The position numbers were made by a program, and so were the translations under genes. Below are positions 1 through 37,962 of a stretch of 37,962 bases of DNA, one piece after another. The stretch comes from Bacillota bacterium (lineage in GTDB: Bacteria > Bacillota > Clostridia > Christensenellales > Aristaeellaceae). The stretch is from positions 1 to 37,962 of the forward strand of contig JAEWNM010000041.1 of assembly GCA_023392755.1 (NCBI GenBank), written 5' to 3'. Under the pieces are notes generated by a model. That model did no database searches. It was not told the DNA's origin and was given only the letters and a program-made list of their open reading frames with translations. Positions within the stretch are counted from its first letter, which is position 1, and each line of letters begins with the position of its first letter.

Positions 1-127
1 TGCGCAAGAATTTCGAAGAAATTCTCTCCTTGCCCGAGCAAACGGCCGCAAAATGGCAACGCCATTTTGCAGTGCAGCGAGGGAAAAACTCAACAAAGTG
101 GCGACAGCCACTTTGTTGATACACTGA
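1..127 (+). repeat. Copy A (right-hand 127 nt only, cut by the window edge) of a multi-hairpin non-coding repeat family
   Basis: Aligns ungapped with 28262-28388 (14 mismatches in 127 by hand count). Hairpins: AGAATTTC-gaa-GAAATTCT (7-25), GCAAAATGGC-aac-GCCATTTTGC (48-70), CAACAAAGTGGC-gaca-GCCACTTTGTTG (91-118). Shared end ATACACTGA. Confidence 0.85.
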
Positions 128-128
128 A

Positions 129-161
129 GCTGCGTTCCCTTGCCAAACAGGGGAACGCAGC
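129..161 (-). terminator. GC-rich hairpin abutting repeat copy A, downstream of the minus-strand acyltransferase gene; possible terminator
   Basis: GCTGCGTTCCC-(loop)-GGGAACGCAGC, a perfect 11-bp stem. There is no clear U-tract on either strand, so terminator function is uncertain. Confidence 0.35.
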
Positions 162-2852: not shown

Positions 2853-2884
2853 GCAAGCACAAATGAATAGCGTGTGTATCTGCA

Positions 2885-3045
2885 TGAAAATGCGGCGCCG
2901 CAAGGCGTCATGGGAACGCGGATGAAATTTCCGGACTATCCCAGTAACCGTGAAACGGACGAACGGGCAAAAGAGCCACTGTCGCAAGATGGGAAGGCGC
3001 CCAAGTAGGATGAAGTAAAGTCGGGAGACCTGTTTACACGTAAAC
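2885..3045 (+). promoter_or_regulatory. Cobalamin (B12) riboswitch aptamer
   Basis: Conserved blocks in order: GGGAAcgcGGaTGAAAttTCC, CCCAGTAACCGTGAA, GAGCCACTG, GGGAAGGCG, and the B12 box AGTCGGGAGACCTG (3019-3032). It sits directly upstream of a BtuF-type binding protein gene. Confidence 0.85.
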
Positions 3046-3094
3046 GCCTCTGGGGAATGGGATATGCTATGCATAGATGGGACTATGCCTTATA

Positions 3095-3128: not shown

Positions 3129-3176
3129 GCTTCCCCCTCAATCTATTCATTTGAATACATGAAAAGGGGTGACCAA

Positions 3177-28146: not shown

Positions 28147-28178
28147 AGCCGGGAAGCCGCCGCGCGGCTGTCCCGGCC
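28147..28178. repeat. Left copy of a 32-nt direct repeat (a terminator-type hairpin) flanking repeat copy B
   Basis: AGCCGGGAAGCCGCCGCGCGGCTGTCCCGGCC is preceded by AAAAA. It differs from 28388-28419 at one base (A/C in a bulge position). Confidence 0.8.
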
Positions 28179-28184
28179 CAGACC

Positions 28185-28388
28185 ATCAAAAAACCCTGGG
28201 AGGTATCGGAGGGCCGAGGTCCTCCGATGCTAGATCGCAAACCAGCGACATGTGCGGTGGTTTGCGAGGAATTTTGCAAAAATTCCTTCCTTGCCCGAGC
28301 AAACGGTCGCAAAATGGCATCGCCATTTTGCAGTGAAGCGGGGGAAAAACTCAACAAAGTGGCGACAGCCACTTTGTTGATACACTGA
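28185..28388 (+). repeat. Copy B (complete, about 204 nt) of the multi-hairpin non-coding repeat; MITE-like or structured-RNA element of unknown family
   Basis: Five helices: 28205-28228, 28235-28243 paired with 28259-28267, 28267-28287, 28309-28331 and 28352-28379. The left 75 nt match 37795-37869 (5 mismatches). The right 127 nt match 1-127. No credible ORF. Confidence 0.85.
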
Positions 28389-28419
28389 GCCGGGCAGCCG
28401 CCGCGCGGCTGTCCCGGCC
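28388..28419. repeat. Right copy of the 32-nt direct repeat (hairpin) flanking repeat copy B
   Basis: AGCCGGGCAGCCGCCGCGCGGCTGTCCCGGCC followed by TTTG. Together with the left copy it would reconstitute a single A5-hairpin-T3 bidirectional terminator. Confidence 0.8.
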
Positions 28420-37711: not shown

Positions 37712-37794
37712 ATGCGCCGGTGCATTCCCGTGCCCCAATCCAAAATCCGGCTCTTTCGCAAAGTCTATGGCTGGCTCCCCGCCAACCTCGGACT

Positions 37795-37962
37795 ATCAAA
37801 AAACCCAGGGAGGTATCGGAGGGCCGAAGCCCTCTGATTCTAGATCGCAAACCAGCGACATGTGCGGTGAGTGAGGTGAGCGCTGCCAGTGGCAGCAAAG
37901 GGCGAACCGAACGAATCAACCGAAACAAGCGGCTGTAAGCCGCGCCGATTGAGGTTGCGGAG
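37795..37962 (+). repeat. Copy C of the multi-hairpin repeat (left part plus an extra internal module of about 84 nt; cut by the window edge)
   Basis: 37795-37869 match 28185-28259 (5 mismatches in 75). Then comes an insertion with its own hairpins (GCTGCC-agt-GGCAGC, GCGGCT-gta-AGCCGC). GGTTGCG at 37953-37959 then re-joins the consensus (GGTTTGCGA in copy B). Confidence 0.8.

Follow-up and report, generated by a model that had tools for sequence, protein, structure and literature searches.

The window analyzed here is the whole of contig JAEWNM010000041.1 (37,962 nucleotides; C306 in our numbering) from the Aristaeellaceae genome GCA_023392755.1 (G000), an assembly of 3.04 Mb in 379 contigs. 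It opens inside a copy of a structured repeat that recurs within the window, and an earlier sequence-only reading had noted matched base changes in one of its hairpins. What is this repeat, how does it move, and what does its fold do? Our analysis indicates that the window start very probably carries a truncated copy of a widespread, structured and so far undescribed transposable element of the miniature inverted-repeat type (MITE), together with the duplicated hairpin that was its target.

The MITE and its copies

The MITE is 209 bp long, runs from CAG to CTG, and has imperfect terminal inverted repeats (TIRs). The repeat is a transposable element with TIRs and a target duplication, and not simply a structured RNA gene. 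Its membership as a MITE was assessed on three features, and all of them were found: TIRs that match those of an insertion sequence (IS), target duplications with corresponding empty sites, and a small, multi-copy, non-coding body.

Copies were counted by a profile search of G000, which gave 108 nhmmer matches. Among them 38 were full length and 22 lay at contig ends, and together they make up 0.52% of the bases, so that the further copies expected by the sequence-only reading were indeed present. Of the genus's 12 other species, 11 have the MITE as well. A covariance model of 109 aligned copies from within the genus (A1) found structural matches over the full length in 80 of the 151 genomes sampled, and these represent 45 of the 72 sampled genera of the bacterial family. 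No conserved open reading frame (ORF) was found in the MITE. The only ATG-started frame shifts between variants, and a coding peptide was ruled out because the frame from the conserved ATG is not kept. Literature searches returned no report of this MITE.

The features of the window that concern the element are listed below by coordinates and strand, with the basis of each call. Columns are those of the 209-bp element.

1–126, plus strand: 3' part of a MITE copy (columns 85–209), truncated by the contig start; nhmmer match, 113/127 to the internal copy
7–25, plus strand: helix H3, 8 bp (7–14 with 18–25), loop GAA, in the A-T / C-G subfamily state; fold, subfamily table and pair counts
48–70, plus strand: helix H5, 10 bp; fold, with 10/10 pairs changed on both sides in the cross-genus alignment
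90–119, no strand assigned: helix H6, 13 bp, sharing bases with the inner part of the right TIR; 98–99% of cells paired
112–126, plus strand: right TIR, TTTGTTGATACACTG; in reverse complement it has ATCAACAAAGT and the terminal CAG in common with the IS left end
127–163, no strand assigned: right-hand copy of the target-site duplication, an intrinsic-terminator-like hairpin (stem 129–161); second copy on contig C314
211–1458, minus strand: ORF of 415 amino acids whose terminator hairpin is the putative insertion target; ORF list and geometry
28147–28178, no strand assigned: left target duplication copy of the internal element; repeat family D3, 97% identical
28179–28387, plus strand: complete reference MITE copy, CAG...CTG, 209 bp; 236.8 bits, columns 1–209
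28388–28419, no strand assigned: right target duplication copy of the internal element, followed by TTTG
37789–37869, plus strand: third MITE copy, columns 1–81 (left TIR, H1 and the 5' part of H2)
37870–37962, plus strand: second repeat of 93 nt, lying within the H2 loop region of the third copy, the contig ending where this repeat ends; contig-end clustering (C306_R versus C23_R), same insert in other copies

The start copy and the internal copy were compared directly. As had been claimed, positions 1–127 align without gaps to 28262–28388, with 113 of 127 positions identical; the identity over 8–127 was 92.5%. Both stem differences in the first hairpin proved to be compensatory (A7-T25 versus G-C and C14-G18 versus T-A), and the loop differs as well (GAA versus GCA). 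The other hairpins had been described as conserved. This was accurate for the stems at 48–70 and 90–119, which are identical, and the differences at 46, 59 and 75 fall in linkers or loops. It did not extend to position 80, where a U-A pair becomes U.G in an outer helix that is itself weakly supported.

Duplication of the target hairpin and the candidate mobiliser

Almost all full copies have a direct repeat of a whole, locus-specific hairpin on their two sides, and this duplication abuts the CAG...CTG ends in 84 of 118 copies from 12 species. The duplicated segments were 16–45 nt long with a median of 23 nt, and the two copies of each were on average 95% identical. They usually begin with A and end with T, which corresponds roughly to a stem-loop plus one base on each side. 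By the same measure, only 11 of 3000 random 209-nt intervals scored as duplicated. For the internal copy of the window, the orthologous intergenic region in three other genomes (G005, G006 and G012) contains one hairpin and no element. Therefore, the repeat on both sides of the MITE is a target-site duplication. In G012 (L240, C158), the site orthologous to the internal copy also has another, strongly structured insert, which matches the MITE profile weakly and lies some 215 nt from the orthologous hairpin on its upstream side.

At the window start, the sequence-only reading had described the hairpin at 129–161 as unrelated to the element. It is instead the right-hand copy of the target-site duplication. 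A second copy was found on contig C314 (214 to 180), with 97% identity across 35 nt. An A-run and a gene's stop codon come before this copy, and CAGACC... with element columns 1–55 comes directly after it. The hairpin does adjoin the element, as had been stated; the exact boundary is shifted by one base, with the element ending ...ACACTG at 126 and A127 belonging to the duplicated target. After column 55, a different IS-like element begins on C314 (terminal sequence GGTACATTGTCAAG...), and then the contig ends. As pieced together from the two contigs, the locus would read: gene, hairpin, columns 1–55, IS, window 1–126, hairpin 127–163, and the convergent gene at 211–1458. Since an IS interrupts the start copy on C314, the assembly break at the window start is explained.

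An IS-like element with the terminal sequence GGTACATTGTCAAGTCAAGTGCAAC, inserted at MITE column 55/56, was seen at seven contig ends in all (C314:1-123, C163, C160, C317 and C378, with variant ends at C222 and C70). These seven ends suggest site-specific targeting of the MITE.

The left hairpin copy has the A-run on its upstream side, and the hairpin is thus read as the terminator of the minus-strand gene at 211–1458, now without its T-tract. Transcripts of this gene would meet another terminator-like site about 40 nt further on, formed by the minus strand of H6 and TTTTT. In the terminator scan, H6 read on the minus strand (119 to 90), with its tail GTTTTTCCCT and the TTTTT run at 85–89, appeared as an inward-facing terminator-like site. 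The Pfam scan gave no match for the 415-amino-acid product. An empty site was sought for the start copy as well, but its orthologues are only about 65% identical. In G009, a single non-homologous hairpin lies between the same convergent genes, which is suggestive only. Elsewhere in the window, a cobalamin riboswitch (RF00174, 72.8 bits) was detected at 2871–3051 on the plus strand, upstream of ORFs starting at 3159.

The likely mobiliser is an IS of the IS1182 family, judging from ends and gene content. G000 contains six right and three left IS ends at contig breaks, all nine of which abut hairpins. The right ends carry C-terminal fragments matching the IS1182-family model NF033551 (60 and 37 bits). 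Four congeners and G081 have genes of full length that pass the cut-off of this model. In G081, which belongs to another genus and is assembled in 20 contigs, 5/5 complete related IS copies are flanked by a whole-hairpin duplication. Its IS protein of 486 amino acids scored 440 bits against NF033551 (cut-off 270) and contains the domains DUF772 and DDE_Tnp_1_6.

The termini of the two elements agree closely. The MITE left end (CAGACCATCAAAAAACC) matches the reverse complement of the IS right end (CAGACCATCAAAGAACC) at 16/17 positions, and the IS left end (CAGACCATCAACAAAGT) agrees with the MITE right end, taken as reverse complement (CAGTGTATCAACAAAGT), in an identical ATCAACAAAGT and in the terminal CAG. 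Homology is confined to these terminal 15–17 bp (the CAGACCATCAA termini); no homology of the MITE interior to the IS ends was found beyond them. The IS left end also consists of a hairpin followed by a T-run, like H6 of the MITE read inward. At three of the nine ends the IS itself was found inserted into the H6 hairpin of MITE copies (C115:10934-10965, C299:202-230 and C257:163-190), and the C115 and C299 sites appear to flank a single insertion in which the 20-nt H6 hairpin was duplicated.

Because termini of 15–17 bp are common to the MITE and an IS1182-family IS that is multi-copy in G000, we propose that an IS1182-family DDE transposase would move the MITE in trans. This enzyme would recognise stem-loop or cruciform DNA and not sequence. 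The step that duplicates a whole hairpin, as read from the anatomy of the insertions, would correspond to pathway b of the IS1272 model (PMC5678879).

Several points weigh against this scheme. Movement of the MITE is deduced from its anatomy, and the G000 assembly contains no intact transposase gene, just C-terminal fragments and ends. G009 and G007 have the MITE in abundance, and the search for IS1182-family matches was negative in both; mobilisation in these two genomes is unproven or past. A clean duplication is missing in 34 of the 118 copies, some of which are flanked by two different hairpins. Furthermore, with IS1272, the characterised member of the family, the target hairpin is deleted and not duplicated (PMC4923244, PMC5678879). 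Flanks with two different hairpins were located in G000 at C310:9890, C207:8096, C214:288 and C226:137. Recombination between copies, or insertion between tandem terminators, could be the cause of such mixed flanks.

Conservation and role of the fold

The claim that selection acts on secondary structure was supported by two alignments, A1 and a cross-genus alignment (A2). In A1, 95.2% of cells were paired, and 26 of 66 pairs had changed on both sides, compared to 14.5±1.7 in shuffled alignments (0/500 shuffles). The covariation score of 0.160 exceeded that of the shuffles (0.083) and of all slid controls (at most 0.058). In A2, which was fitted to the model and so favours structure, 43 of 66 pairs had changed on both sides, with a score of 0.294 versus 0.098, again above every one of 500 shuffles and every slid control. 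H6 alone had 5 such pairs in A1 and 9 in A2.

Helices H1, H2, H3, H5 and H6 were well supported, whereas H4 and H4b were weak (73–75% paired). Five helices are thus kept by compensatory change. Across genera, the sequence of H6 is replaced while its pairing is kept (TCAACAAAGTGGC/GCCACTTTGTTGA to GTCAAAAAAGCCGCC/GGCGTGTTTTTTGAC), and the same is true of H3 (GGAATTTT/AAAATTCC to CCCTTGC/GCAAGGG). The 16-nt motif AGCGACATGTGCGGTG at the apex of H2 is nearly invariant across genera (window 28245–28260, columns 67–82). In G000 it is confined to element copies (61/61), and it is absent from the IS. Rfam gave no match at the gathering score, only chance-level matches at E<=10. It is unusual for a MITE that a non-coding fold is held by covariation in 45 of the 72 genera sampled, and this demands an explanation.

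We give about even weight to the explanation that the fold acts as DNA stem-loops. The helices would mimic the architecture of the ends and targets that a hairpin-specific transposase binds, and H6 would double as a terminator facing inward, in the manner of the IS left end. A role at the DNA level leaves the invariant H2 motif, absent from the IS, unexplained. It also sits poorly with the mismatch classes: G.T variant classes outnumber A.C classes 20 to 8 overall and 10 to 0 in H1 and H3. This excess of G.T points to one particular strand folding on its own.

The same MITE may instead work through RNA, as a structured 3' untranslated region or insulator, or as a small RNA carried by the element; we rate this as possible, at clearly less than an even chance. 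Along with the G.T excess, in 75 of 118 copies the plus strand is slightly the better folder, with a mean difference of 1.2 kcal/mol, and H6 with its T-run is terminator-like on the minus strand. The H2 apical motif would also find a place in such a role. Strand-biased mutation was considered as the cause of the G.T excess and rejected, since the base changes show just a mild skew (C>T 16 versus G>A 11), alike in stems and loops. As an untranslated region or insulator, the RNA would possibly limit the damage from separating a terminator hairpin from its U-tract.

Other observations speak against an RNA role. An orientation bias that would indicate co-transcription was looked for and was not found, either relative to flanking genes (9 versus 9 in tandem contexts) or relative to the T-tract side (18 versus 25). 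The element contains no promoter-like site, and it matched no Rfam family even at E<=10. Inserted copies also lack purifying selection on their stems, which argues against a host-level function of each copy. The five-helix core with AGCGACATGTGCGGTG might be a functional single-stranded molecule, an RNA or one particular DNA strand, active in structure-directed transposition or in a host-level role; we put this forward tentatively, as a rather unlikely case.

The stage at which selection acts was examined through the variation among copies. The two compensated pairs are not private to the start and internal copies; they mark multi-copy subfamilies within the genome. For the pairs 7-25 and 14-18, G000 contains 30 copies in the GC/TA state, about 21 in GC/CG and 10 in AT/CG, and 8 copies combine the AT, CG state with the GAA loop, as in the start copy. 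An intermediate subfamily with G.T/CG is represented by 6 copies at different loci.

Private substitutions occurred at similar rates in stems (0.70%) and unpaired positions (0.86%; p=0.26), and 33 of 64 private stem mutations leave a mismatch. Therefore, selection acts on proliferating source copies and not on inserted ones. The inserted copies decay neutrally, and the compensated states go back to source copies that later multiplied. In this respect the sequence-only reading went too far: the pattern had been taken to suggest selection and not decay of a dead repeat, and inserted copies do decay, with private substitutions equal in stems and loops.

An explanation without any selection on structure would derive the matched changes from templated quasi-palindrome repair or from gene conversion among copies, in combination with recent amplification. 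Several compensated pairs are in fact transversion pairs or lack intermediates, such as the change from C-G to A-U (62 versus 42 sequences) and from A-U to G-C (77 versus 32, none unpaired), and the element lives on DNA hairpins. We nevertheless regard this explanation as improbable. The G.T intermediate subfamily exists at six loci, the private stem mutations are left uncorrected in 33 of 64 cases, and conservation extends over 45 of the 72 sampled genera, with helices that keep their place and length across genera although their sequences are wholly replaced.

Other machineries, contig ends and known systems

Could the MITE be moved by a different machinery? The candidates were an IS30-family element of the IS1630 type, a group IIC intron or other retroelement, and an HUH/RAYT enzyme. 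Group IIC introns home to terminators, which counts in favor of this view. So does IS1630 of Mycoplasma fermentans, an IS30-family element and the published case of variable target duplications of 19–26 bp (PMC2853133). We consider a different machinery very unlikely. The IS30-type partner was rejected because its model NF033563 had no match in G000, and only two matches above the cut-off were found in the genus. The group IIC intron was rejected in turn, as no intron or ribozyme model matched and a target duplication is present. The combination of TIRs and target duplication does not fit HUH elements, and the termini of the MITE match an IS1182-family IS that makes the same duplications.

The ends of the window, as had been noted, lie at nearly homologous positions of the element (both at about columns 81–85), and the suspected assembly break at a multi-copy repeat agrees with the 22 of 108 matches that touch contig ends. 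Contig-end clustering likewise showed many contigs breaking inside the MITE. At the right edge, contig C23 continues the element straight after the 93-nt module, with GTTTGCGAGGAA. The copies at the two edges are different copies, because the left half of the start copy is on C314. A circular contig whose two ends are halves of one element copy, with about 3 nt (GTT) missing between the nearly homologous columns at which they stop, is hardly credible: the left hairpin and columns 1–55 of the start copy sit on C314, the end copy has a different left flank without such a hairpin, and the overlapping bases differ (TTGCGGAG versus TGCGCAAG).

Second small repeats of about 93 and 105 nt, like the one at the right edge, were found nested in the H1 and H2 loops of many MITE copies. 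They show short overlaps of 2 and 7 nt and form contig-end families of their own. In G000 they occur at C3, C43, C54 and C360 (column 41/42) and at C283 and C239 (near column 79).

Among known systems, the closest are IS1272 and TnSha1 of staphylococci, which belong to the IS1182 family and have the same transposase family as the candidate mobiliser (NF033551). They likewise target hairpins or terminators without a sequence consensus (PMC4923244, PMC5678879), and their ends can form stem-loops. The outcome is different: IS1272 and TnSha1 delete the hairpin that they target (IS1272 partly or completely) and create no duplication, whereas here the whole hairpin is duplicated. Stem-loop-replacing transposition of the IS1272 type was thus rejected for this MITE. 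The item in the window is also a 209-bp non-coding derivative and not an IS. In an alternative pathway, strands joined at the 5' feet of stem-loops would yield two copies of the entire stem-loop (PMC5678879), and the duplications in 84 of 118 MITE copies and 5 of 5 IS copies match this hypothetical pathway b. ISPse1, another member of the IS1182 family, makes a 4-bp repeat (PMC3281130); therefore the family is heterogeneous in its target products.

IS1630 resembles the MITE in its long, variable target duplications. Its duplicated targets were reportedly inverted repeats in the original description of 1999. It has a different transposase family and is an autonomous IS, not a structured MITE. 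The structured bacterial MITEs Correia/NEMIS, ERIC, RUP/BOX/SPRITE and bcr1 are similarly short and non-coding; they lie between genes in multiple copies and have terminal repeats and folds predicted to be stable (PMC10969869). They differ in having short fixed duplications (e.g., TA) or none, none of them is reported to duplicate a whole terminator hairpin, and the MITE shares no sequence with them.

These results describe a third outcome for hairpin-targeting transposition, which has very few known cases, namely IS1630 and the hairpin-deleting IS1272. Hundreds of insertions with whole-hairpin duplication by an IS1182-type element fix the sites of both strand transfers, and this makes the proposed structure-dependent mechanism testable. 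The MITE also fragments the assemblies of these genomes. If the five-helix core is a functional single strand, it would form a new class of structured nucleic acid carried by an element in Clostridia and would not be passive cargo. Each insertion splits a terminator stem from its U-tract, so that the 3' ends of many genes are rewired in a widespread group of uncultured Clostridia.
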